From a virus (taxonomy: Duplodnaviria > Caudoviricetes): DNA of 61,159 bases. Below are positions 2,436-61,159 of this stretch, piece by piece; the first letter of the stretch is position 1, and every line of letters begins with the position of its first letter. The stretch covers positions 1 to 61,159 of the IMG/VR virus record IMGVR_UViG_3300025652_000068; one strand, 5' to 3'. The notes beneath the pieces are model-generated. The model saw only the letters and a list, made by a program, of their open reading frames with translations, ran no database searches and had not been told where the DNA came from. The position numbers and the translations under genes are program-made.

Positions 2436-2873
2436 CTATGCTATTCGTATAATTGCTGCAGAGGATGAAAAAGCTGGAAACTGAATAGTAAATGTTCCCG
2501 AGGTAGCTGTCTTATCGCCACCAAAATTTAAGACACATACTGCTGGATCACCTGATACAGTATCATTATAAATCAATGCCCCTCTTGCAGTTAACGTTAC
2601 TCCTGTAAATGATAAATCGGCAAAATCAACTAGTGCTGTGTCAGAAGATATTGAAGTACCGCCATTAGTTAACGCACTTCCACCTGAAGCATATTGACCT
2701 GTATTTGATACTTGGTTATCAGACGTAAACGATGTAGTTGATTTACCTAAAGTAGCATCACTAGTGTAAAGCGACAGTTTAAAGCTATTGCCACCACTTG
2801 CTTTAAAGTTATGTGTGCCTTCTAATAATTCTTTTTTAAATGAATTACATATTGCATTGGTTGTTATTGCCAT
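2436..2873 (-). CDS. Tail-associated structural protein
   Basis: 145 aa beta-rich composition, between adaptor-like gene and fibre, coupled to upstream gene. Confidence 0.55.
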   Translation of the reverse strand: MAITTNAICNSFKKELLEGTHNFKASGGNSFKLSLYTSDATLGKSTTSFTSDNQVSNTGQYASGGSALTNGGTSISSDTALVDFADLSFTGVTLTARGALIYNDTVSGDPAVCVLNFGGDKTATSGTFTIQFPAFSSSAAIIRIA

Positions 2874-3541
2874 TATCCTGCTCCTTTAACATTTGGTGAA
2901 ATTGATGGAACGGGTATTCTTGGTTCACCATCTGTATATTGCCCACGTTTTTTGTGTCCCATCTGTTGCATAGCAAACTGCTGTACCTCTTCATTGTACT
3001 TCCCTTTGTATAAGTTGTACATATCAGCAGGGCCTTTTAAGTAGCTAAAACACTCAGTTAGCACACCATGTAATAGCATTGATTCTTGATTAATTGACAA
3101 AAAAGTCGTGGTTGAGCTATTAAAATGTGGTGGATCTATGACATAGTTGATCTGTACAGTCAAAGCACTTGCGGGTACAGGAGCGATAACAATAGCACTG
3201 TCATCCCAGTTTGCATAATACTTTGGTACACCTGTAGCATCTGTTGGGTTAAACTCTGAGATAAAACTAGTATCTCGTTTTTCTAAAAATATACGATCGC
3301 TACCACTTGTTACTTGAACTGACCTTAAATACATCATCTCCTCTGGCATACTGAGATATCTTTGTGATGCCACACATGAAGATGTTTTGTAAGCTCTTAA
3401 ATCATCATAATCAACTTTACCAGCAATATCTAATTCTGTATTACGAATAAATTGATCAATTAAAGTATCCGACAATACATTAGAATCTACTTCGGTATAG
3501 TTTCTTACTTGTGTTAAAAAATTTGCGTGTGTAATACTCAT
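2873..3541 (-). CDS. Head-tail adaptor / tail tubular-like protein
   Basis: 222 aa with G.PKYY and LL.G.L.E motifs typical of podovirus adaptors; synteny. Confidence 0.55.
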   Translation of the reverse strand: MSITHANFLTQVRNYTEVDSNVLSDTLIDQFIRNTELDIAGKVDYDDLRAYKTSSCVASQRYLSMPEEMMYLRSVQVTSGSDRIFLEKRDTSFISEFNPTDATGVPKYYANWDDSAIVIAPVPASALTVQINYVIDPPHFNSSTTTFLSINQESMLLHGVLTECFSYLKGPADMYNLYKGKYNEEVQQFAMQQMGHKKRGQYTDGEPRIPVPSISPNVKGAG

Positions 3542-12004: not shown

Positions 12005-12685
12005 TTATTTTTTCTTCTCTGGTGCGTATAAATTATTAAATGTGTATTCCCAATCCATGTAACTGTCGTGCGCTTCTGCTTTATGTGTCCATTGTGATGG
12101 AATAAAATCTGGTGGACCATTCCCAGTCACCCACATAGCAGGTGAAGTCACGCGTACGCGATTATTAGGTAAGGCTACAAAACAACCTTTCCACGGACCT
12201 TCAGTCAATGCTAGTACATGTGATTGTTTATGTTGTGCTGGATCATCTGCTATTTCACTGTTTGTGTAATCTACAGTAAAATAATATTTAGCAGTATAGA
12301 ATTCGTTTTCAATTCGAGCTAACCAAGGACTTGAACTAGTTCTATCAAAAATTACAATTGAATGATCTCTAGAAGATACATCCCAAGGTTGAGCTATATG
12401 TGTTGGCATGGGTGGTGGTATTTCATCTAGTGGTTCATCTTCGACCAATGCAGTAATTGGCATACGCGCCCACATTGCACCACCATGCGGATTTTCCAAA
12501 CGATTCTCTTCATCTTCACAACCAGTAAAGATAACTTGAAAACTTAAACAACGATCTGGGATACAGTTAACTGCGATAACATAACAGTGTAGAAACTCAC
12601 CGTGATAAGCACGATGGTTATGTGTAAATTCTTTTCTGACCCATGCCTTTAAAACTAAAGGTATGTTCGATATTAAATGTGACAA
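12005..12685 (-). CDS. Hypothetical phage protein
   Basis: 226 aa, GGAMWARMPITAL, QHKQSHV and PNNRVR motifs. Confidence 0.6.
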   Translation of the reverse strand: MSHLISNIPLVLKAWVRKEFTHNHRAYHGEFLHCYVIAVNCIPDRCLSFQVIFTGCEDEENRLENPHGGAMWARMPITALVEDEPLDEIPPPMPTHIAQPWDVSSRDHSIVIFDRTSSSPWLARIENEFYTAKYYFTVDYTNSEIADDPAQHKQSHVLALTEGPWKGCFVALPNNRVRVTSPAMWVTGNGPPDFIPSQWTHKAEAHDSYMDWEYTFNNLYAPEKKK

Positions 12686-27498: not shown

Positions 27499-28599
27499 TT
27501 ATCCATTATCTGATGTTTTATGGGAGATGTCAACAGAAATAATTGCGTGTCCTATAAACCACGCTATCTGTGGTACAATGGCGTTACCTAGTCCTTTGAT
27601 TCTTCCAACTCTACCTTTGTCCAGTTCATAGGAAATCCCATCAGGAACTCCACAAAGTTCGGATTGAGCTTGCCACCAGTTTTCTTCGGCAGTGAATTGG
27701 AAAGCATCTTCTGCTTCGCTGTATCCATGTTCTTCCAATCTGCTGCTTGAGGTGTCGGATACTGTTCCTGTCTCATCATCATGGTCGGTAGACTGTCCGA
27801 GTTGCGACTCATTGATGCTGGACTTAGCGTTGAGTCCTTGTAATCCCTCGCTGCTGGTGTTGGATACATCTTCTCCAGATGATGCACTGCATCCTTCAGC
27901 TTCACGCCATACCTCACGCCCTTCTTGTTCTTCCTGGAGAAACTGCCATTGTGGAGTTCGACATTCTTGACCACTCCCCCTTCCAGATCGCAGGCTCTCG
28001 GTGTCGGATACATTCTCATGGTTTCTGGGTCTACTTGCTCTCTGAGATTGCTCGGCTTGGTTCTGCCCTTGCTTTCTGGACTTCTTGGTGGCAAGTGATC
28101 CATTGTGTTCGGAGTAGCCAATAATCCAGAGCCTTTCCCTTTTGTGCCACGCACCAACGGATGAAGCTGGAATAATAAATGTCCTTGTGTCGTAACCTTC
28201 ACTCGCCAAGTCCTCGAGTACGGTGTCAAGACCAAGTTTAATGTGTCCACTAACGTTTTCTCCAACAAACCAAGTGGGCTTGCACTCTTGGACAATTCTA
28301 AAAGTGTCTGGCCAGAGGTGTCTTGGATCTTCTTCGCCTTTTTGTTTGCCTGCGACACTAAAAGGTTGACAGGGGTAGGAACAAGTGATGAGGTCAATGT
28401 CATCAACTCCTGTTGTTTCTTTGATATCTTCATAAGTTAACTCCTTCAAGTCATTAAATATTGGTATGTTTGGAAAATTTTTTTGCAATACTTGTTGCGG
28501 ATATTTGTCTATTTCACAAAAAGCTACCGTGTTAATACCAAGCTCACGAAAAGCTAATGCCCAACCACCAATACCTGAACACATATCAAGATGGTTCAT
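27499..28599 (-). CDS. DNA cytosine-5 methyltransferase, catalytic (alpha-like) polypeptide
   Basis: Motif I (D.CSGIGG), IV (PCQPFS), VI (ENV), VIII (H.RER) and X (GLGNAIVP); no motif IX in this frame. Confidence 0.9.
   Translation of the reverse strand: MNHLDMCSGIGGWALAFRELGINTVAFCEIDKYPQQVLQKNFPNIPIFNDLKELTYEDIKETTGVDDIDLITCSYPCQPFSVAGKQKGEEDPRHLWPDTFRIVQECKPTWFVGENVSGHIKLGLDTVLEDLASEGYDTRTFIIPASSVGAWHKRERLWIIGYSEHNGSLATKKSRKQGQNQAEQSQRASRPRNHENVSDTESLRSGRGSGQECRTPQWQFLQEEQEGREVWREAEGCSASSGEDVSNTSSEGLQGLNAKSSINESQLGQSTDHDDETGTVSDTSSSRLEEHGYSEAEDAFQFTAEENWWQAQSELCGVPDGISYELDKGRVGRIKGLGNAIVPQIAWFIGHAIISVDISHKTSDNG
27505..27533 (-). promoter_or_regulatory. Putative sigma70 promoter
   Basis: TTGACA-17bp-GATAAT; spacer contains TCTCCCAT. 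Confidence 0.6.
27588..28433 (-). CDS. Overlapping +1-frame methyltransferase beta-like polypeptide (putative TRDs plus motif IX)
   Basis: 281-aa nested ORF with four (P/A)TP.[A/T].D repeats and LNPNFVEFLMGFPMNWT (motif IX-like); start codon uncertain. Confidence 0.7.
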   Translation of the reverse strand: MKISKKQQELMTLTSSLVPTPVNLLVSQANKKAKKIQDTSGQTLLELSKSASPLGLLEKTLVDTLNLVLTPYSRTWRVKVTTQGHLLFQLHPLVRGTKGKGSGLLATPNTMDHLPPRSPESKGRTKPSNLREQVDPETMRMYPTPRACDLEGGVVKNVELHNGSFSRKNKKGVRYGVKLKDAVHHLEKMYPTPAARDYKDSTLSPASMSRNSDSLPTMMMRQEQYPTPQAADWKNMDTAKQKMLSNSLPKKTGGKLNPNFVEFLMGFPMNWTKVELEESKD

Positions 28600-36625: not shown

Positions 36626-37357
36626 TTAAAAATTAGTCATTTTGTGGAATTTATCAACTCTTTCTAGCCAGCGCTCTTCATATTCATTTAACTTATTTTT
36701 ATCCATAATAAATTCTTGGAAAAGTAAATCTTTAGTACAAACAAGAATAACTCCTTGTTCAATATCACCATATTGTTTTTTGTGAGCTAAACTATAAGCT
36801 GCAATTTGATAATAATAATCTTCAATCCATTCTTCTCTTTTTGGTTTATTAGATTGTTTAAAATCACCTATGGTAGGTTTATCTTTGTAATTACATACTA
36901 AATCTGTAGAGCCTGCCCAACGATCATCATAGGCTAAATTTATTTCTGTGCCATAAACCTCAGATAAATCGTTTAAGTTTTTAACAATCGTGTGTGCCAT
37001 CATTCTTGGTAAATGACCGTCTTTTCTTAAATTAAAATAACCTACACCATTCATGTATTGTTCTAACACATAGTGCATTTCTGTGCCACGAGTAGCAGCT
37101 TGGTTCGTGATCCGTGCAGCTTCTTCATGTCCTACACGATTCCTCCAGGCTTCTAATGATTTTTTTTTATCTTCAGATTGAGTGCCGGATAAAATTGTGG
37201 TCACACTAGGAACTTTTTTGTCTTGAACATTATAGGTTCGTGGTCCGTCGTTATCGTTACGGGTATAGTTTTTATAATCGTATGGGTAAGTTCTTTTGAA
37301 ACCGGTAACTGTAAAACTATTTTGATTTTTTATTAGTTTCATCTCGCACTCTGTCAT
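36626..37357 (-). CDS. PD-(D/E)XK exonuclease
   Basis: PSVTTIL, RGT.MH, AGSTD, DFKQS and QIAAY motifs. Confidence 0.85.
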   Translation of the reverse strand: MTECEMKLIKNQNSFTVTGFKRTYPYDYKNYTRNDNDGPRTYNVQDKKVPSVTTILSGTQSEDKKKSLEAWRNRVGHEEAARITNQAATRGTEMHYVLEQYMNGVGYFNLRKDGHLPRMMAHTIVKNLNDLSEVYGTEINLAYDDRWAGSTDLVCNYKDKPTIGDFKQSNKPKREEWIEDYYYQIAAYSLAHKKQYGDIEQGVILVCTKDLLFQEFIMDKNKLNEYEERWLERVDKFHKMTNF

Positions 37358-38081
37358 TATATTCTATTACTTCTTTTATTATGCTTAAATCTAAACCATA
37401 ATACAAAGCAGAGTGTGTTATTGCTTTAGCATCTTTAGGTAAGCAGTGTCCATCAAAACCACGTTCTTTTGTTACTTGACTGTGGCTTTGCCCTATTCTA
37501 CGATCTAAAATTATACCCTTTCTTACATGATTAAAATCAATACCAGACACGTTACAAAAATCATATACTTGATTAAAAAATGCAACTTTTGTGGCTAGGT
37601 AAGCGTTTTTAAAATATTTAATTGCTATAAGTTCTCTTGGATCCGCTTCAATAATATGTGGACAGCTAGGAAAAATTTTCTTAAATAAATTCACCCAGAA
37701 AGTTGTTTCTTTGCCTCCTATCATTATGTATTCTTGTTGACGAAGATCTTCTAAAGATTTTTCAGCTCTCAAAAATTCTGGAGAAAAACAAATGTTTTTA
37801 TCAAATCTTGATTGTATATAATTCCAGCCTTCTAAAGATATAGTGCTTTTAATTAGAATAGGTACATCAGGACAATCTTGTAATACTTCTTTAATATGTA
37901 TTATATTACATGCGCCTTCTATACCGCTTGGTGTAGGTACACATACAATAACAGCGTCGACATCTTGACTAATTTTTCTGTCGTAATGTTTTGGATCTAT
38001 TATCTCTGTCTCGTGATAATTTTGTAAAATGGCAGCATAGGCTCTGCCTACGAAACCATAACCAGCAATGGCTATTCTCAT
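37317..38081 (-). CDS. UDP-glucose/GDP-mannose dehydrogenase-like protein (no C-terminal domain)
   Basis: GYGFVG Rossmann motif, CVPTP, IKST, SPEFL, K...N.YLA.K and G.CLPKD catalytic Cys. Confidence 0.8.
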   Translation of the reverse strand: MRIAIAGYGFVGRAYAAILQNYHETEIIDPKHYDRKISQDVDAVIVCVPTPSGIEGACNIIHIKEVLQDCPDVPILIKSTISLEGWNYIQSRFDKNICFSPEFLRAEKSLEDLRQQEYIMIGGKETTFWVNLFKKIFPSCPHIIEADPRELIAIKYFKNAYLATKVAFFNQVYDFCNVSGIDFNHVRKGIILDRRIGQSHSQVTKERGFDGHCLPKDAKAITHSALYYGLDLSIIKEVIEYNDRVRDETNKKSK

Positions 38082-48929: not shown

Positions 48930-49722
48930 CACTACTAGGCTTCATTTCGTCCCACAAACGACCTGTATATTGGAACTCACCCACATGCGTTATATAGTCC
49001 ATTATATAGCAATAGCATTTACCGCCTATATCACGCCACAGCTTACAAAAAGCAAAGTCTTCACCAAGAAAACGTTTGTTTTCTTTGTCATAATAAGTGT
49101 CAAAGAAGTTATACAGATAAGGTTTTTTCTGTAATCTGCCATCAATTAGACTCTCTTGATGTATCTCCATATCTGGATAAGATTCAATTAAAGTATCAAA
49201 CACTTCTCGTTTGATAAGCATACATCCAGTAGGTGCATGAGTAACTTCAATCACACCTTCACCCTCTACCTCTATCGCTTCACTATCTTCTAATCGCAGA
49301 GGGTAAGTATTACAATTGACATGTGCTTCGTGAGCCGTGGTCACATCACCGTGTAGTATCTTCTGAATGAGTCGGTCGAACTTAATATCTTTTAAAGGGT
49401 AGGGTACAGAAATGACGTCCTTGTCAGCCTCAAGCATACTCCATATGCTGTCCGAGGAAAACGCTATATCTGAATCAATAAAAAGCATGTGTGACATTTC
49501 GCTTTTTAAAAAAGAGGCAGTACATAAATTTCTGCCCTGTGTTACCAGTGATGATTTTATCATTTCAAACATGACTTTGATACCTTTTTCCATACAGGCT
49601 TTTTGAAACTCTAGTAAGCTTTGCGTGTAATGAATAGATACATCTGAGTGCACTGGTGTAGCTACATAGATACCTAGTTCTCTCTTTTTGTTTAACCATA
49701 AAGGTTTACTTGGATCTGGCAT
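48910..49722 (-). CDS. Glycosyltransferase (GT-A fold)
   Basis: ATP, RN, FIDSDI (DxD), TG.MLIKR.VF and GED..FC motifs. Confidence 0.75.
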   Translation of the reverse strand: MPDPSKPLWLNKKRELGIYVATPVHSDVSIHYTQSLLEFQKACMEKGIKVMFEMIKSSLVTQGRNLCTASFLKSEMSHMLFIDSDIAFSSDSIWSMLEADKDVISVPYPLKDIKFDRLIQKILHGDVTTAHEAHVNCNTYPLRLEDSEAIEVEGEGVIEVTHAPTGCMLIKREVFDTLIESYPDMEIHQESLIDGRLQKKPYLYNFFDTYYDKENKRFLGEDFAFCKLWRDIGGKCYCYIMDYITHVGEFQYTGRLWDEMKPSSVDSTEE

Positions 49723-50641
49723 TTAAAGCTCCTTCTAAAAATCTAGTCCACTCAATAGATTTTTTTGTCCAATTATAAAATCGTTTTGTGTAATCTTGTT
49801 GTAGTAAAAGATGCTCATGTATATAGTCATAGTGTAAATGACCCATACCTGTTTTTATAGCATAAGCAAAATTTTCTGCTAACTTTTTGTAATTATCAGT
49901 GTAGTTAACATAGATTGGAAATTCAGCACAAGTCTCATATAAAGCGCCATAGTTGGTAGTTACACAATATAGACCAGCAGCCATAGCTTCGAGAGCCGAG
50001 ATACATGAGGTCTCTTCCCAGATACAAGGGTAAGCAAACATGTGGTAATCTTTCATCTTATTTAAAATAAAAGTATTAGGCTGATAGCCAATATAGTTAA
50101 CGTTAGGTAATGTTCTTGCTTGATCAAATAGTCTTTCCCAGTCTGCATTATTACTTTTAGCAAATTCTTCACCATACACCTCACAGCTGCTGTAAACATC
50201 TAATATTATATTCTCATCTTGCAAGTATTGCATGGCTAATAACAATACATTTAAACCACGCCAAGGTGTTGGCTGAAAGACTAATCTAAGTGTATCACCT
50301 TGTTTGTACGGTTTTCTTTCTGGAAAACTAGTAACGCCATTTTTAATCACATGACATTTTTCAGTTGGTATATCATACATCATACGAAACTTCTCATAGT
50401 TCCAATGTGAATTAAAGACATACCAATCGTATAAACGATGATTACTTTTATCTGCAAAAAAGGGTTTGATGTTAGGTTGGTCGTAGCTGTTTTTTTGCCA
50501 TAAGATGTTAATCTTGCTTTCATCTATAGGTACTTTGCCTGGTATAGAAGTGCAGATTTGAAAGTGACTAAGTAGATACTCGTCTACTCTTGCCGTTAAA
50601 AACTCATGCTGTAATTCTGTGCCGCCTCTTGGCTCACTCAT
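49706..50641 (-). CDS. Glycosyltransferase (GT-B, GT4-like)
   Basis: GGTE, NG, RGL and ETSCISALEAMAAG (ExxxxxxxE) motifs. Confidence 0.8.
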   Translation of the reverse strand: MSEPRGGTELQHEFLTARVDEYLLSHFQICTSIPGKVPIDESKINILWQKNSYDQPNIKPFFADKSNHRLYDWYVFNSHWNYEKFRMMYDIPTEKCHVIKNGVTSFPERKPYKQGDTLRLVFQPTPWRGLNVLLLAMQYLQDENIILDVYSSCEVYGEEFAKSNNADWERLFDQARTLPNVNYIGYQPNTFILNKMKDYHMFAYPCIWEETSCISALEAMAAGLYCVTTNYGALYETCAEFPIYVNYTDNYKKLAENFAYAIKTGMGHLHYDYIHEHLLLQQDYTKRFYNWTKKSIEWTRFLEGALNARSK

Positions 50642-50825
50642 TCGTCTCCCCAAAGAGATCAAGTTTAGGAACAATAATAGTCACATCACGTTGGATATCT
50701 TCTTCTTTGGTAGAAGTACCAGCATCTGCTACATCAGCTTGTGCTACTTCTTCAGACTCGTACTCGACACCCGTCTTTTTATTAGATATCTTTGTTTGTG
50801 CTTCGCAATCAATAGTAATCGTCAT
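50634..50825 (-). CDS. Small hypothetical protein
   Basis: 63 aa within the late operon. Confidence 0.55.
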   Translation of the reverse strand: MTITIDCEAQTKISNKKTGVEYESEEVAQADVADAGTSTKEEDIQRDVTIIVPKLDLFGETNE

Positions 50826-54708: not shown

Positions 54709-55622
54709 TATGAGGTTGCTCCATTTCTTGTACCTGTAGCTGTAAATGTTACAGTATTTCCGTTTAAGTTTACAGCCTTACCAGCTGCCCCACCTGCTCC
54801 ACCAGAATTTTCACCTTGAGATCCAGCTGCTCCTACACCTCCACCGTCTCCTCCAGCACTACCATTAGATGCAGCTGCTCCACCAGATCCTGCCGCACTT
54901 ACAGAACCTGCCGAGCCTGCATTACCTGAAACATTGTTACCACCTTGACTCACAATACTTCCAGCTGCTCCACCAGCACCTCCACCAAAGCCACCTCCGC
55001 CACCACTTCCAGAAGCTGTATCATTTCTTGTGCCACCTTTAACTGCTACGGCTGTTATAACACCTTTACCACCGCCGCCACCGCCGCCACCGCCAGAAAT
55101 AGTTCCGCCAGTATTATCAATAGTAGTGTCAAATTGCATATTAATAGCGTGTCCTGCTGCACCACCTGCGACTCCTGCACCATTGTTTGAAGCACCACCA
55201 GCACCACCGTCGCCACCATCACCGATAATGGTTGAATTATTATCAATTGTAATCACATCACCACTAGTCCATCCTGTGCCTGTATCTAGGGCTGCTGTGC
55301 CAGTTGAGGTTGAAGAAATAGTTGCATTATTGACTAAGGTTACATCACTTAGGCCTGCAACATAGGTGCCGCCTCTGTTATTGTAAATATTGTAATTAGA
55401 AGTATCACCTGAAATGGTTAAAGTAATTGCAACACGATTAGAAGTGCCGTAAAAACTTGACATGGTAATTGCACCTGATGAGGCAATGCCAGAAGTGCTT
55501 GAAGCTGTCGGCACTAAACTACCACCACGATAATATTCAGATAAAGAATGTGGGGTGCTACCACCAAATTCTGCCGCTATTTCGGATATTGCTAAACTAG
55601 AACCGCTACTCTTTATGGTCAT
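54708..55622 (-). CDS. Glycine-rich tail fibre tip protein
   Basis: SLSEYY.G N-terminal motif and poly-Gly repeats. Confidence 0.7.
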   Translation of the reverse strand: MTIKSSGSSLAISEIAAEFGGSTPHSLSEYYRGGSLVPTASSTSGIASSGAITMSSFYGTSNRVAITLTISGDTSNYNIYNNRGGTYVAGLSDVTLVNNATISSTSTGTAALDTGTGWTSGDVITIDNNSTIIGDGGDGGAGGASNNGAGVAGGAAGHAINMQFDTTIDNTGGTISGGGGGGGGGKGVITAVAVKGGTRNDTASGSGGGGGFGGGAGGAAGSIVSQGGNNVSGNAGSAGSVSAAGSGGAAASNGSAGGDGGGVGAAGSQGENSGGAGGAAGKAVNLNGNTVTFTATGTRNGATS

Positions 55623-56841
55623 GTTTGAGTTCCTCTATTTCAGCTTTTAATTCTTTTATTGCTTCAATAAGAACACCAACAAGGTTGCCGTAAGCAACTG
55701 ACATATACTCGCCTTCATCATGTACTACTTCTGGCATTACTTTTTGCATTTCTTGAGCAATTACACCAGTTCCTCTTCTACCATCTCTATCAAAGGTAAC
55801 GCCACGCATATCAGTAACTTTATCTAAAGCATTATCAATAGTTTCTATATTGTCTTTTAGTCTTTCATCAGAAAAAGCTGTTACATCATTGTTAAAGGTT
55901 GCAGCACCTGCTGCTGACATATCAAGGGTTAATGCTGTAATAGTAGAACCACCGTCATTACCTTTAAAAATAATGTCTTTGTCACTGGTAGCTGACTGCA
56001 TTATAAAATCAGTTGAGCTATTAGTAAATCGACCTATTTCTGTGCCAGCATCTTTAAAAATAATATCTGCACCATCTGCATCTAAAATAATATCGCCAGC
56101 AGAATCTAAAAGCATATCAGAACCACTATGTAACGATTGATCTCTATTTTTAAATTGCCATCCTACGGTAGCATCTCCAGAATAAACTAAAGTAAATGCT
56201 GCTCTTTCATTTGCTACTACAAGGTCAGAAGCGGCACCATTTATATTAGAACTGTTACGACCTACAGTTAAATTATTAGTATCAAAAGTATTTTCTGAAT
56301 CTAAAAAAGTTACTTCATCACCTGCGGCAGGTGAGGCAGGTAAGGTGATTGTTCTAGCTCCACCAGAAGTATCAACTAATAGTTGTGCTCCCGCTTGTAC
56401 TGTTTCGGCTGCATTGACAACACGCCAATATCTAGTTTCTTGATCTTTAACAATGTCGGTGCCGTTTGAATGACAAACATAATGATTGCCTTCACATAAT
56501 AAAAAACCTGTTTGACTGGTTACTTTAAAAGTAAGGGTGTAACCTGCATGATCGGTACCATCGATAATGTTAAAAAACTTTTCAATACTTGCAGGCATAT
56601 TAACGGTTCGATTCGCTGCTAGGGTACCTGTAAATTTAATGCTCATGTTTCTTGCATTAGATACTGCTGCATTAGACATTACTAGAGTAACATCGCCAGA
56701 GGCAACGTTAACTTCTTCGTATCCAGCTATCGCTTGTTGAACAACGTTAAAATTATTATTGGTTTTATCACCCCATGTTCCAGGGTTTTCTCCAGTTACT
56801 TGTAGCTCGAATTTTAAATCACTTGAGTACGATGATGCCAT
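55606..56841 (-). CDS. Tail fibre with C-terminal intramolecular chaperone (peptidase S74) domain
   Basis: SDERLKDNI...G.IAQE...LIEAIKEL coiled coil. Confidence 0.85.
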   Translation of the reverse strand: MASSYSSDLKFELQVTGENPGTWGDKTNNNFNVVQQAIAGYEEVNVASGDVTLVMSNAAVSNARNMSIKFTGTLAANRTVNMPASIEKFFNIIDGTDHAGYTLTFKVTSQTGFLLCEGNHYVCHSNGTDIVKDQETRYWRVVNAAETVQAGAQLLVDTSGGARTITLPASPAAGDEVTFLDSENTFDTNNLTVGRNSSNINGAASDLVVANERAAFTLVYSGDATVGWQFKNRDQSLHSGSDMLLDSAGDIILDADGADIIFKDAGTEIGRFTNSSTDFIMQSATSDKDIIFKGNDGGSTITALTLDMSAAGAATFNNDVTAFSDERLKDNIETIDNALDKVTDMRGVTFDRDGRRGTGVIAQEMQKVMPEVVHDEGEYMSVAYGNLVGVLIEAIKELKAEIEELKHDHKE

Positions 56842-57478: not shown

Positions 57479-58663
57479 CTATAATTCTGCTGTTGCAGAA
57501 AATCTACCTGTGTTTAAATACATCATACCTATACCACCAGGTATATTATTTAAAGTACCACCTGACCCTAAGTCTATTTGTACTGCGTGAGGTGTATTAT
57601 ATGATGTGCCTAAACTAGCACTTCCAGCAACAGCTCCATTCCATAAACCAACTGTTCCAGATATAGCATTTGTTGGTGCTGCTCTCATTTCTACAGGCAA
57701 CATAAATCCCCATCTAAATACTTCTGTTGTACTATTATTCCAACCTCTGCCAAACATATATCCTGACCTATCTCCTGTTGTAAAATGATACCTTTGGCAT
57801 CTTGCTAAGTTATCACCAAACGATTCGTTTTGAAATGGTGGTATGGTTGTTGAATCATACTCGCCTACTTCTAGTTGAACTCCTGTTAAATACCAGTCAT
57901 TACTTGTACTGTCTGCTAAGTTTACATTACCAACTACTCTATTCGCATTAACTGTTGTTACCCAAGATGTTGCTAAAGTACCACTTGTAAAATTACTTCC
58001 AGCAGCTAACCACCAATTTATTCTTAATGACTCACCATTATCATTGTCAAATGCTCCTGTAGTATCACCATCAAAAGTTAATACTTTTTTCTCCCACGTG
58101 TTGGCACTTGAGATAGTATATGCTTGACTTATAGTTCTGTTATTATCATTATCATCTAATTCCATAATGTATGTTCCAGTTTTAGCTGACTTTACCCAAA
58201 AAGATATAGTCATTTTTTCTGCATTAGCTGTACCTTTTTTAAATAGCTGTAAGTCTTGTCCCTCTAATTTTTGGACTACAATTAAAACAGCACCTGCTGA
58301 TGGACTTGCTCCTGCTGTTGTACAATCCATTTTTAAAGAATTTGCAAAACCACTTCCAGTTGGTGCGTCTGTTTCTTGTGATACAGTCCAAGTTCCTATA
58401 CCAAATGAATGACTCATTCTGTCCACAGTTAAATACCCACCACCTGAACTATGTCCTGAACTTGAAGTTCCTCTTTGAGCTACTGCCATATCACCATTAT
58501 AAATAATTGGTTTTACATTTGGTCTATTAGTTACATGGTCTAGATTAGATAGCGGTAAGTTACCTGATGCTGCTGGTATGGTTACTGTATTAGTTCCAGC
58601 AACTGCTGGTACGGTAATCGTTACATCACCTGAAGTGCTACCTTTTAATTTAATGCTACTCAT
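57479..58663 (-). CDS. Tail-associated putative adhesin, paralog 3
   Basis: NGDM.VAQRG...GVQLEVG...L.RCQRY core shared with two neighbours. Confidence 0.75.
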   Translation of the reverse strand: MSSIKLKGSTSGDVTITVPAVAGTNTVTIPAASGNLPLSNLDHVTNRPNVKPIIYNGDMAVAQRGTSSSGHSSGGGYLTVDRMSHSFGIGTWTVSQETDAPTGSGFANSLKMDCTTAGASPSAGAVLIVVQKLEGQDLQLFKKGTANAEKMTISFWVKSAKTGTYIMELDDNDNNRTISQAYTISSANTWEKKVLTFDGDTTGAFDNDNGESLRINWWLAAGSNFTSGTLATSWVTTVNANRVVGNVNLADSTSNDWYLTGVQLEVGEYDSTTIPPFQNESFGDNLARCQRYHFTTGDRSGYMFGRGWNNSTTEVFRWGFMLPVEMRAAPTNAISGTVGLWNGAVAGSASLGTSYNTPHAVQIDLGSGGTLNNIPGGIGMMYLNTGRFSATAEL

Positions 58664-58836
58664 TAGTCTGCCTCCGCTATGGTGTTACCTTCTGCTACCC
58701 AATCTTGAATTGCTTGGTAGTGTCTGTTCGCTGTATCTATTGGAACTGACCAAGTTTTTCCATCAATAACAACTTCAATAGATATGTTAGTGTCTGTTGC
58801 TATATCTTTATAATATTTTGCTGATGTAATTTCCAT
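58663..58836 (-). CDS. Small partner protein, paralog 2 (57 aa, not in ORF track)
   Basis: MEITSAKYYKDIATDTNISIEVVIDGKTWSVPIDTANRHYQAIQDWVAEGNTIAEAD; TAATG coupling at both ends. Confidence 0.8.
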   Translation of the reverse strand: MEITSAKYYKDIATDTNISIEVVIDGKTWSVPIDTANRHYQAIQDWVAEGNTIAEAD

Positions 58837-59942
58837 TATAACTCCGATTCAAATGCTATTTGAGCCGATGCACTTCCTGTTGCTATAACTCCACCATGAC
58901 CTTGTGTGCCTGACACATTTGTTGTAAAGTCTAATCCTGCACAAGTTGTACTTGCTCTTACTAATGCAAAGTCATCACAAGCATCAGCAGTATTGTTTGC
59001 AAGTATATTATAAAAATTACTTCCTACTTCTTTATCTACTGATGGTGCTGACCTCATGGTTACAGGGAAAGGTATATTCGTAGCAAATAAATTAGCATTG
59101 TAATATCCACCTGCTGCAAAGTTTTTACTGTTCTCATTGACTAACATAAAATAATACCTCTGACATCTTGCCAAGTTATCACCAAACGATTCATGTTGGA
59201 AGGGAGCTATGCTGTTAGCATCAAACTCGCCTACTTCTAACTGTATGCCTGTAATAGACCAGTCATTATCTGTACTGTCGGCTAGGTTTACATTGCCTAC
59301 TGCTCTGTTTGCATTAGTTGTTGATGCCCATGCAGTTTGTAAACTGCCTGATGAAAAATCACTACCACTACCTAGCCACCACAATAATCTTAACGAATCA
59401 CCATTGTCATTGTCAAAAGCACCTGTGGTATCTCCAGCAAATGATAATACTTTCTTTTCCCATGTGTTTGCACTTGAGATTGTATACGCTTGATTTATAT
59501 TTCTGGTATTATCATTATCATCTAGTTCCATAATGTATGTTCCAGTCTTGTTAGACTTAACCCAAAAAGATACAGTCATTTTTTCTGCATAACTTGTACC
59601 TTTTTTAAATAGTTGCACATCTTGTCCTTCTAATCTTGTATTAAAAATAGCATAATCACCTGCTGCTGGACTTGCATCTGCGGTAGTACAATCTAATCTG
59701 TACGAATTTGTTAAACCAGTATTGTCAGGTGCAGAAGCAGTTTGAGCTATTGTCCATGTACCTAATGTACCTATACTAAGTGACATTCTATCAACTGTAG
59801 TGTAGCCACCAGTAGTACTACCTGTAACACTTGTAGCCCTTTGAGCAACTTGCATATCACCATTAATGATAAGTGGTTTAGCACTTCTTCTATCTAAGAC
59901 TGCTGTGTTATCTGCTACTGTGCCATGTAATGTTAATGCCAT
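58836..59942 (-). CDS. Tail-associated putative adhesin, paralog 2
   Basis: Same core as neighbours, distinct N- and C-termini. Confidence 0.75.
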   Translation of the reverse strand: MALTLHGTVADNTAVLDRRSAKPLIINGDMQVAQRATSVTGSTTGGYTTVDRMSLSIGTLGTWTIAQTASAPDNTGLTNSYRLDCTTADASPAAGDYAIFNTRLEGQDVQLFKKGTSYAEKMTVSFWVKSNKTGTYIMELDDNDNTRNINQAYTISSANTWEKKVLSFAGDTTGAFDNDNGDSLRLLWWLGSGSDFSSGSLQTAWASTTNANRAVGNVNLADSTDNDWSITGIQLEVGEFDANSIAPFQHESFGDNLARCQRYYFMLVNENSKNFAAGGYYNANLFATNIPFPVTMRSAPSVDKEVGSNFYNILANNTADACDDFALVRASTTCAGLDFTTNVSGTQGHGGVIATGSASAQIAFESEL

Positions 59943-60133
59943 TAGTCTGCCTCCGCTATAGTGTTACCGTCTATTGCCGCCCACTCTTGGATTGCTTGAT
60001 AGTCTGTGTTGCCTTCTGCTATCGGAACAAAATACACATCATTATCATCATCAATAACTTTGTAAGTACTGATTTCTCCACATAAACTTACTTTTTTTAC
60101 TGTACTTATTATTTCTTTAGTTAATTGTTTCAT
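59942..60133 (-). CDS. Small partner protein, paralog 1
   Basis: Ends NTDYQAIQEWAAIDGNTIAEAD. Confidence 0.7.
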   Translation of the reverse strand: MKQLTKEIISTVKKVSLCGEISTYKVIDDDNDVYFVPIAEGNTDYQAIQEWAAIDGNTIAEAD

Positions 60134-60141
60134 AAAATATC

Positions 60142-61159
60142 CTATAACTCTGATGTTGCTGAAAATTGAAATTGTAATTGAGCACCATCATTTCCCATAG
60201 CGGCTGAATTTTCAAAATGAGCAGAATCTGTTGAAGCAAGACCAGCAGACATAGCTATTAATCCGCCTGTGTCGCCATTTCGACCGCTACCTGTTGTGCC
60301 ACCTGTTTGATTATGTATCACAATAGTTGGTGGTGCTCTAAAACTAACAGGGAATTGATGTCCTGTTGATGTTCTGCCTATTCCTGTACCTGTTGCACAC
60401 GTTACAATTATCCCTACTGCTGTCGCAGAGCCAATAGCTGTGCCTTGTGAAAATGTACTTTGACAATAACGCTTACATCTTTGTAAGTTATCACTATACG
60501 ATTCGTGTTGAAATGCTGGTATAGTGGTTGAATCATACTCGCCTACTTCCATTTGTAATCCTGTAAAATAAACATTGTTACTTGTACTACTTCCACTATT
60601 TACTTGCCCTACTGCTCTGTTTGCATTGGTTGAACTCGCCCAAGATGTATTTAATGTACCACCTGAAAAATCACTACCAGCACCTAACCATAAATTTATA
60701 GCAAAACTACTGCCATTATCATTATTTAAAGTACCTGATGTATCTCCAGCAAAACTTAATACTTTCCTTTCCCAAGTGTTAGAGCTACTGACTGTATAAG
60801 ATTGTGATATTTGCCTTGAGTTATCAGTATCAAATAATTCAGCAATATATGTTCCTGTTACTGTTGCTTTTATCCAAAAAGATATGGTTACTTTTTCAGC
60901 ATTAGATGTTCCTTTTTTAAGCAACTGTAAATCTTGTCCTTCAAAAAGATATCTTGCTAAATGAAAAGTTCCTGACGCAACAGAAGTATCTGCTGTTGTG
61001 CAATCTAATTTCCAAGAATTGGCAAAGCCTTGACCTGTTGGAACATCTGTATCTTGTGTGTGTGTCCAAGTACCATTATCACTTAAATCAACTTTCATTC
61101 TATCAATAGTATGATATCCACCACCTGTGATTCCTGTTGTGCTTGTACCTCTTTGAGCT
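60142..61159 (-). CDS. Tail-associated putative adhesin, paralog 1 (C-terminal part; starts at 363)
   Basis: Frame is open to the window end and joins 1..363 through the terminal overlap. Confidence 0.8.
   Translation of the reverse strand, partial: AQRGTSTTGITGGGYHTIDRMKVDLSDNGTWTHTQDTDVPTGQGFANSWKLDCTTADTSVASGTFHLARYLFEGQDLQLLKKGTSNAEKVTISFWIKATVTGTYIAELFDTDNSRQISQSYTVSSSNTWERKVLSFAGDTSGTLNNDNGSSFAINLWLGAGSDFSGGTLNTSWASSTNANRAVGQVNSGSSTSNNVYFTGLQMEVGEYDSTTIPAFQHESYSDNLQRCKRYCQSTFSQGTAIGSATAVGIIVTCATGTGIGRTSTGHQFPVSFRAPPTIVIHNQTGGTTGSGRNGDTGGLIAMSAGLASTDSAHFENSAAMGNDGAQLQFQFSATSEL
61012..61159. repeat. Terminal overlap, copy 2
   Basis: Matches 1-148 at 146 of 148 positions. Confidence 0.95.

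Follow-up and report, generated by a model that had tools for sequence, protein, structure and literature searches.

A phage cytosine methyltransferase gene with a nested +1 frame that most likely encodes a second, recognition subunit

The DNA analysed here (the window) is a whole virus record of 61,159 bases, IMG/VR record IMGVR_UViG_3300025652_000068 (Duplodnaviria; Caudoviricetes), with a completeness rating of 100%. On its minus strand, an open reading frame (ORF) that we call alpha encodes the catalytic domain of a C5 DNA methyltransferase and fully encloses a second ORF, beta, which is read in the +1 frame. We propose that this gene is most likely translated into two proteins, which together form one cytosine methyltransferase of the M.EcoHK31I type, with the whole recognition region on beta, and put the probability of this at about 0.8. 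Frame openness in relatives, a switch in the frame on which selection acts and a model of the complex all agree with an earlier reading of the sequence alone, which had proposed an M.EcoHK31I-like dual-frame gene whose nested +1 ORF supplies a motif IX-like segment and a set of modules.

Two reading frames in one gene

The alpha frame is laid out as follows (positions are those of the window).

27499–28599, minus strand: alpha ORF, 366 amino acids, large (catalytic) domain of a C5 DNA methyltransferase with motifs I–VIII, a low-complexity linker and motif X (from the ORF and its PF00145 match)
28564–28587, minus strand: alpha motif I, DMCSGIGG, residues 5–12 (S8, G9, G11 and G12 invariant in the alignment)
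28357–28377, minus strand: alpha motif IV, YPCQPFS, residues 75–81, with the catalytic Cys77 (P76, C77 and Q78 invariant)
28126–28146, minus strand: alpha motif VIII, HKRERLW, residues 152–158 (H152, R154 and R156 invariant)
27685–28107, minus strand: alpha linker, residues 165–305, the –1-frame read-through of the beta modules (from composition, codon variability and openness)
27568–27594, minus strand: alpha motif X, GLGNAIVPQ, residues 336–344 (G338, N339 and P343 invariant)

Alpha matches the Pfam family PF00145 (E 4e-45, profile positions 1–323) and the NCBIfam family TIGR00675 (E 5e-37), and its profile matches M.HhaI residues 12–169 (E 2e-32). Motifs I, IV (PCQ), VI (ENV), VIII and X, the set of a C5 DNA methyltransferase catalytic domain, are all held by the one alpha chain. 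A canonical single-chain enzyme also has a recognition domain and motif IX between motifs VIII and X of that chain; alpha does not, and a motif IX-like segment is found in the +1 frame. Residues 165–305 are rich in Ser, Glu, Gln, Gly and Arg, and 13% of them are hydrophobic, against 34% in residues 1–160. The PF00145 match and this composition bear out what the sequence-only reading had said of the main frame: motifs I, IV, VI, VIII and X, with a low-complexity variable region that lacks motif IX. In the alignment, alpha shows no sequence conservation from the end of motif VIII to motif X; the linker is kept open and is not conserved as a protein.

The nested frame has parts of a different kind, several of which carry a proline-threonine-proline (PTP) signature.

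27588–28433, minus strand: beta ORF, 281 amino acids, +1 frame, wholly nested in alpha, with an N-domain, four PTP modules and a motif IX-like end (from the ORF list)
28122–28433, minus strand: beta N-domain, residues 1–104, overlapping alpha motifs IV–VIII (W76 invariant; T81, L86, F88 and L90 conserved at 90% or more)
28011–28121, minus strand: beta module 1, LATPNTMD..., residues 105–141, a nearly invariant "C" module (cluster C, in 127 proteins)
27867–28010, minus strand: beta module 2, YPTPRACD..., residues 142–189, an "A" module (cluster A, 133 copies in 125 proteins)
27684–27866, minus strand: beta modules 3 and 4, YPTPAARD... and YPTPQAAD..., residues 190–250, "B" modules (cluster B, 128 copies in 103 proteins)
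27618–27677, minus strand: beta motif IX-like segment, residues 253–272, GGKLNPNFVEFLMGFPMNWT, overlapping the alpha stretch that precedes motif X (P, M, G and P invariant)

The ORF list and the translation agree with the earlier account of a 281-codon ORF wholly inside alpha that ends in a motif IX-like segment; this C-terminal end is the LNPNFVEFLMGFPMNWT stretch. All four repeats described there are present at their places, beginning at beta residues 106, 142, 190 and 225; the first (LATPNTMD), counted there with the others, turned out to be a distinct, nearly invariant module. The DNA repeat GGTGT(C/T)GGATAC was likewise recovered: GGTGTYGGATAC matches exactly at 27751, 27856 and 28000 and in none of 100 shuffles, reads VSDT, VSNT and VSDT in alpha (residues 197, 245 and 280) and reads YPTP in beta. 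The alignment of beta proteins has four parts, namely the N-domain of about 104 residues, a near-invariant first module (WATPNTMDH...), variable modules with an aromatic residue before the PTP, and an invariant LNP..VE.LMG.P..WT block. The conserved N-domain is a feature that the sequence-only reading did not contain, and the great size of the family, described below, is another.

The two proteins share their DNA closely. The bases of alpha motif IV are part of the N-terminal region of beta, alpha motif X begins within the last beta codons and extends beyond the beta stop, and the alpha stretch just before motif X and the beta motif IX block are the same DNA read twice, both being conserved in the alignments.

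Beta also has start signals of its own.

28441–28446, minus strand: Shine-Dalgarno sequence AAGGAG, 7 nt upstream of the beta ATG (28431–28433), reading Lys-Glu in alpha (from the sequence)
28437–28439, minus strand: beta-frame TAA, two codons before the beta ATG (from the sequence)

Because of this TAA, the beta ATG is the first possible start. Among 38 distinct beta start contexts, the start is ATG in 35, a strong Shine-Dalgarno sequence is present in 30 and a beta-frame stop lies at most 4 codons upstream in 32; the background for a strong Shine-Dalgarno sequence is 4.5% of 4484 windows in the same genes.

Openness and selection in the two frames

The double openness of this DNA is far beyond chance and under selection. 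When beta was recoded synonymously with the window's own codon usage (20000 replicates), the alpha frame received 24.5 stops on average and was never free of them, whereas the real sequence has 0; recoding alpha put a mean of 14.3 stops into the beta frame, where the real sequence again has 0. A T-ending beta codon followed by a codon starting with AA, AG or GA makes an alpha-frame stop, and such pairs are absent: across 64 related genes, T-ending beta codons stand before codons of this kind in 0 of 5263 cases, against 23.3% of 12190 elsewhere. These numbers support the earlier expectation that the modules must stay open in two frames.

The third frame of the overlap DNA, by comparison, has 23 stops, which argues against the idea that only alpha is functional and that the nested frame is a relic or a side effect of composition. 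Two observations lean toward that idea. The gene calls on record for this genome include alpha alone: an exact copy of alpha is present in the protein collection, but none of beta. The G+C content is also higher in the overlap (0.45–0.49) than in the alpha-only ends (0.34–0.38) or genome-wide (0.365), and higher G+C itself lowers stop frequency. However, it is beta and not alpha that shows codon periodicity and amino-acid conservation over the modules, and alpha alone would be an enzyme without any recognition domain; we regard a functionless nested frame as extremely unlikely. The raised G+C of the overlap at 27588–28433 is the compositional cost of two open frames.

The layout is conserved in three sets of relatives. 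The first comprises 80 viral loci, the best of 531 relatives, chosen by the beta protein (35–86% identity). The whole beta-frame open stretch lies inside the alpha-frame stretch in 77 of these 80, all four tested alpha motifs are present in 72, and the third frame has a median open length of 20 codons; of the three exceptions, one is truncated at the end of its contig and the other two have a beta that extends 397 nt beyond the alpha stop. In the second set, 80 bacterial-genome loci that are the best of 524 relatives and were chosen by a beta alignment, alpha is open across the beta match in 79, the lone miss being again a contig-end cut. Going by their record titles, these genomes span at least ten phyla: Bacillota, Bacteroidota, Pseudomonadota, Planctomycetota, Chlorobiota, Spirochaetota, Actinomycetota, Chloroflexota, Verrucomicrobiota, Saccharibacteria and others. 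The third set, 80 viral loci chosen by alpha patterns alone, has a +1 frame open for 177–602 codons together with a tblastn match to beta in 80/80, a +2 frame open for 4–69 codons, and the strict motif IX pattern in 73. Breakage of the nested frame by stops in homologs, which the sequence-only reading had named as an outcome that would speak against it, is thus not what the three sets show (open in 77/80, 79/80 and 80/80), and in none of their 240 loci does beta occur without alpha.

Relatives of beta are numerous and nearly invisible in annotation. We found 1817 at E ≤ 1e-3, and a beta profile matched 36319 cluster representatives at E ≤ 1e-3, 17395 at ≤ 1e-10 and 2012 at ≤ 1e-30. Where the sources name them at all, the name is "hypothetical"; in Paenibacillus larvae phages, annotators listed both nested ORFs as methyltransferases. 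A paper on 48 such phages lists two cytosine methyltransferase genes, and the part that lists them does not mention the overlap. Gene callers forbid long same-strand overlaps and record one frame, and one half of the enzyme is for this reason missing from most annotations. A tblastn search of plasmids with beta matched 10 records, 0 of them from E. coli. The same alpha/beta gene is also present at five places in the chromosome of one Roseovarius metagenome-assembled genome (L116 and L118–L121); the match statistics do not differ among the five, which points to a multi-copy element.

An alpha-guided codon alignment of 64 genes tells which frame is selected where. In the alpha-only ends variability peaks at the third alpha codon position (0.56 and 0.64), and over motifs IV–VIII it still does so, in damped form (0.43). 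Over alpha residues 161–305 the most variable position becomes alpha position 1, which is beta position 3 (0.47 and 0.60), and residues 306–336 behave likewise (0.39). Codon-position variability thus follows the alpha frame up to motif VIII, the beta frame beyond it and the alpha frame again from motif X on. In the stretch of the first module, amino-acid identity is 0.81 for beta and 0.46 for alpha. Four-fold degenerate sites of alpha are always non-synonymous in beta, and in pairs that are 75–95% identical they differ at 0.34 in the alpha-only part, at 0.15 over the beta N-domain and at 0.01–0.02 over the modules and motif IX; two further divergence classes gave the same order. From the switch in codon variability together with the constraint on four-fold sites, it follows that the protein sequence of beta is under constraint from end to end, and this includes the N-domain. 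For alpha, the same data show such constraint only on either side of the linker, through which the frame is nevertheless kept open.

The selection signal changes frame at just the places where a ribosome would have to shift if the gene made one chain by two programmed frameshifts, +1 after motif VIII and –1 back before motif X, and rare database proteins read in this way (P0310, P0307 and the alpha frame of L104). Such a route, which the sequence-only reading had kept as its alternative, requires no open beta frame over motifs IV–VIII and no open alpha frame over the modules, yet practically every locus has both, far beyond the parts that a single chain would use. Against it also stand the conserved Shine-Dalgarno sequence and the ATG directly after a stop, as well as the constraint on alpha synonymous sites over the beta N-domain. 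Moreover, the end of motif VIII in alpha and the start of the first module in beta share bases, and one chain cannot hold both. The chimeric proteins are either singletons or lack essential motifs, and PF00145 was found in 2 of 68 longer beta relatives and in 1 of 120 near-length relatives among those listed (P0077, with motif I fused to beta). We therefore consider the double frameshift very improbable, and two separately translated proteins are the reading that we follow below.

A natural single-chain form was a candidate that we rejected: the PF00145-bearing chains that were inspected switch frame and are missing catalytic motifs or motif IX. The chimeras P0077, P0307, P0310, L104 (1227–2363) and L001 (1291–2219) join motif I to beta, run in alpha to motif VI and then in beta, or run alpha–beta–alpha. 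Such frame-switched chimeras are probably frameshifted copies or assembly errors. A marine Chosvirus record has a broken alpha N-terminus.

The modelled alpha–beta complex and related enzymes

Co-folding of the two ORFs, proposed earlier as a check, was run and agrees with the two-chain reading. The alpha–beta model has an ipSAE (interaction prediction score from aligned errors) of 0.88 (median over three runs), while the best of 3 controls scores 0.28. The mark for this score is reached by 116 of 157 solved complexes and by 2 of 215 mismatched pairs, a calibration that holds only roughly, as our own alignments were used here. The runs share at least 46% of their contacts, with a predicted local distance difference test (pLDDT) value of at least 52 for beta. 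The predicted interface joins beta residues 52–94, 104–113 and 251–276 to alpha residues 10–15, 33–41, 120–164 and 304–360, and its tightest predicted contacts are those of beta 258–272 with alpha 333–344 (motif X) and 10–15 (motif I). The modules have low confidence in the model and lie mostly outside the confident interface. As modelled, the conserved parts of beta would fit the place of the small domain, which speaks of likeness and not of binding.

Based on these findings, we propose the following scheme. Alpha would be the catalytic large domain, with motifs I–VIII and a C-terminal motif X joined by the Ser/Glu/Gln-rich linker of about 140 residues; as a protein, this linker would be nothing more than the –1-frame reading of the beta coding sequence, and it would have to stay stop-free. 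Beta would be translated separately from its own AAGGAG and ATG inside alpha and would supply the missing small (recognition) domain: the N-domain, the four PTP modules at the target-recognising position and the motif IX-like C-terminus. Through its N-domain and motif IX, beta would dock on alpha motifs I, VI–VIII and X to give a complete enzyme that may methylate phage DNA. Its role would then be protection of the phage genome from host restriction. Since the gene lies directly behind the polymerase gene and no restriction-enzyme gene was recognised (39 of the 61 larger ORFs were scanned with PHROGs), such a protective role is likely.

Beta could in principle be a real overprinted protein that has nothing to do with the methyltransferase, for instance an independent DNA-binding or regulatory protein. 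Its sequence has no detectable similarity to a curated family or a solved structure: beta has no match in Pfam or NCBIfam; searches of solved-structure sequences with a whole-beta profile, with the last 37 residues and with a 34-row profile of the motif IX block returned chance-level matches only; and beta variants with motifs IX and X in one frame have no Pfam match even at E 10. Among the PHROGs, beta matches phrog_1008 (E 8e-31). For a small prophage methylase, relative-like by its description, the passages of PMC8936443 that deal with it report a toxicity in E. coli that does not depend on the catalytic cysteine, and this could hint at a second activity. However, beta never stands without alpha in the loci described above, several of its relatives carry the methyltransferase motif X in the beta frame, alpha has no recognition domain of its own, and the model puts the conserved parts of beta on alpha motifs I, VI–VIII and X. 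An unrelated function for beta is accordingly improbable to us, and beta as the small subunit of the methyltransferase remains the interpretation that we prefer.

This interpretation has a precedent. M.EcoHK31I, from E. coli HK31 (YGGCCR), is described in the relevant sections of PMC2836561 as an alpha/beta C5 methyltransferase whose beta polypeptide is encoded wholly within another frame of the alpha gene; there, alpha has motifs I–VIII and X with the recognition domain, beta has motif IX, and their association is needed for activity. In the window, too, a beta ORF lies wholly inside the alpha gene on the same strand and in another frame, and its LNP..VE.LMG.P..WT block, which has no match in profile searches and is placed on alpha motifs X and I in the model, would take the part of motif IX on M.EcoHK31I beta. 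The differences are considerable: the recognition domain of M.EcoHK31I is on its alpha, whereas in the window the whole recognition region (N-domain and PTP modules) would be on beta; alpha has only low-complexity read-through at that place; the overlap covers 281 codons; and the layout belongs to a family of thousands in phages and many bacterial phyla.

Multispecific C5 methyltransferases carry several tandem target recognition domains and recognise several sequences, as set out in the part of PMC8936443 devoted to them. Enzymes of this type from Bacillus phages (SPR, phi3T) resemble the present layout in having several short variable modules in tandem between motifs VIII and IX; they differ in being single chains, whereas here the modules are on a separate nested subunit, have a PTP signature and sometimes follow motif IX. 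The same paper, where it describes the orphan prophage enzyme M.BatI (GCDGC), gives it an unusual CxGxxG motif I, a gene 20–30% smaller than typical, a recognition region that falls short of even one of normal size, and activity of the cloned gene in E. coli, and it treats M.BatI there as a single protein. By description alone, these are features of short alpha genes such as L164, which encodes 251 amino acids with a nested 164-residue beta, and M.BatI may be a short member of the family. For phage methyltransferases with a nested second subunit as a family, no paper was found in the open-access and preprint literature (subscription journals were not covered).

Several points count against the two-chain enzyme. 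Translation of beta and formation of the heterodimer are read here from sequence and from a model. The loci of the three sets are related to one another, so that the counts of open frames are not independent events, and one of the two alpha patterns behind the 80/80 of the third set is a subfamily-specific C-terminal pattern; the third set accordingly does not sample C5 methyltransferases at large. The name motif IX for the beta end comes from resemblance, position and the complex model, not from a significant profile match. Beta modelled by itself with AlphaFold2 (27-row alignment) gave a poor model, with pLDDT 52 and a predicted template modelling score of 0.19, and even in the complex its pLDDT is only 52–57. 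The high complex score may also come from likeness to solved single-chain C5 methyltransferases, of which alpha and beta are in effect two halves. Finally, M.EcoHK31I was compared by its described layout and not by sequence.

Modules, variant layouts and genome setting

The modular character that the sequence-only reading had ascribed to beta held in relatives. In 175 distinct beta proteins, each with 2–9 PTP starts, the modules have a median length of 44 residues and fall into 59 sequence clusters, which are combined differently among close relatives: written in cluster letters, the window has C-A-B-B, and relatives have I-A-B-B, C-A-H, C-D-I-A-B-J or T-B.

What the modules do can be seen in two ways. 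Each PTP module may be an independent recognition module, the number and kind of modules setting one or several targets, a suggestion drawn from sequence patterns that we hold tentatively and at somewhat less than even odds. The modules could instead make up a single composite recognition domain, or serve as structural spacers, with one target and with their number tuning affinity or geometry, to which we would give not quite an even chance. For such a composite domain speak the nearly invariant "C" and the very common "A" in otherwise different betas, as would be the case for structural parts, as well as betas that have PTP modules after the motif IX-like segment, outside the usual place of multispecific recognition domains; the low confidence of the modules and their position mostly outside the confident interface fit it too. 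On the other hand, no module is universal, since "C" is missing from L003, L007, L012 and phage Tadhana; minimal betas have one module of another kind; and close relatives whose N-domains are more than 80% identical have different sets of modules, which is the pattern of exchangeable units.

The smallest forms, alpha genes of 251 and 260 amino acids on Bacillus and Lacticaseibacillus plasmids, have beta ORFs with a single module. Such an alpha has no room for a recognition domain, and the pair therefore supports the two-chain reading. In other relatives motif X has moved. In two viral loci (L209, 1498–2677; L228, 1483–2836) alpha stops right after motif VIII, and the one beta frame holds the modules together with motifs IX and X. 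In a Planctomycetota genome (L106, 1197–2210) motif X is fused to beta and alpha has none, and the proteins P0175, P0204 and P0212 also have motifs IX and X in one frame. A motif X found on either chain is hard to explain unless both chains form one enzyme. M.AquI is encoded by two adjacent genes, with motifs I–VIII on alpha and IX–X on beta. The division is the same in L209, L228, L106, P0175, P0204 and P0212; it differs in that the beta of the L209, L228 and L106 type still begins, in the +1 frame, some 100 codons into alpha, and the window keeps motif X on alpha.

Other layouts extend the beta frame in one direction or the other. In L142, L146 and L149 and in the proteins P0175, P0190 and P0204, the beta frame stays open far upstream, across alpha motif I, where it has the conserved sequence WxIPK...SAF...SKEDL; in L149, for example, the ORFs are almost co-extensive, with 285 and 305 codons. 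In L080 and L082 (2335–3835), the beta that runs 397 nt beyond the alpha stop has further PTP modules after the motif IX block, and extra PTP modules follow this block in the long beta proteins P0263 (645 amino acids) and P0276 (631 amino acids) as well. In L030–L032 (about 2501–3454), the tblastn match to beta continues about 240 nt past the stops of both ORFs, and this extension may be a second partial copy or a broken downstream gene.

A wider picture, which we consider less likely than not, is that a very large family of C5 methyltransferases from phages and many bacterial phyla consists of two-subunit enzymes whose specificity subunit is hidden in the +1 frame and almost never annotated, that exchangeable PTP modules dock in turn on one shared catalytic core, one target each, and that phages build multispecific anti-restriction methylases by shuffling cassettes of 35–50 residues. 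If this were true, these genes would be among the longest and most widely conserved same-strand overlaps in DNA genomes, many short "orphan Dcm" database entries would be half an enzyme, and each module cassette would, in addition, have to be free of stops in a second frame. Should specificity be set by the modules, they would be a compact, recombining toolkit for evading restriction and a source of new cytosine-methylase specificities. In practical terms, cloning such a gene would mean expressing two proteins unknowingly, and mutations in alpha would also hit beta. A two-frame overlap of 281 codons across phages and many bacterial phyla, with a motif X that hops between chains, offers a rare natural system for the co-evolution of two proteins on one DNA.

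Nearly every gene of the record is on the minus strand. A scan with PHROGs found a replication block with primase, helicase and family-A DNA polymerase, as well as head, portal, terminase and tail-fibre genes. Alpha lies directly behind the polymerase gene (phrog_17, E 1e-106), and the two overlap by four bases.

28596–28599, minus strand: ATGA overlap of the alpha start codon with the stop of the upstream family-A DNA polymerase gene (from the ORF ends)

The overlap of the polymerase stop and the alpha ATG suggests translational coupling. No restriction enzyme was named in the PHROGs scan of 39 of the 61 larger window ORFs, a partial scan that is blind to novel nucleases.

The window also has three consecutive paralogous tail-fibre genes (57479–61098), all matching phrog_4492, and a fourth fibre-like gene at 55606–56841. 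Possible auxiliary genes are a ferredoxin-like gene (12005–12685, phrog_3704), a UDP-glucose dehydrogenase-like gene (37317–38081, phrog_9148) and a glycosyltransferase gene (49706–50674, phrog_2170).

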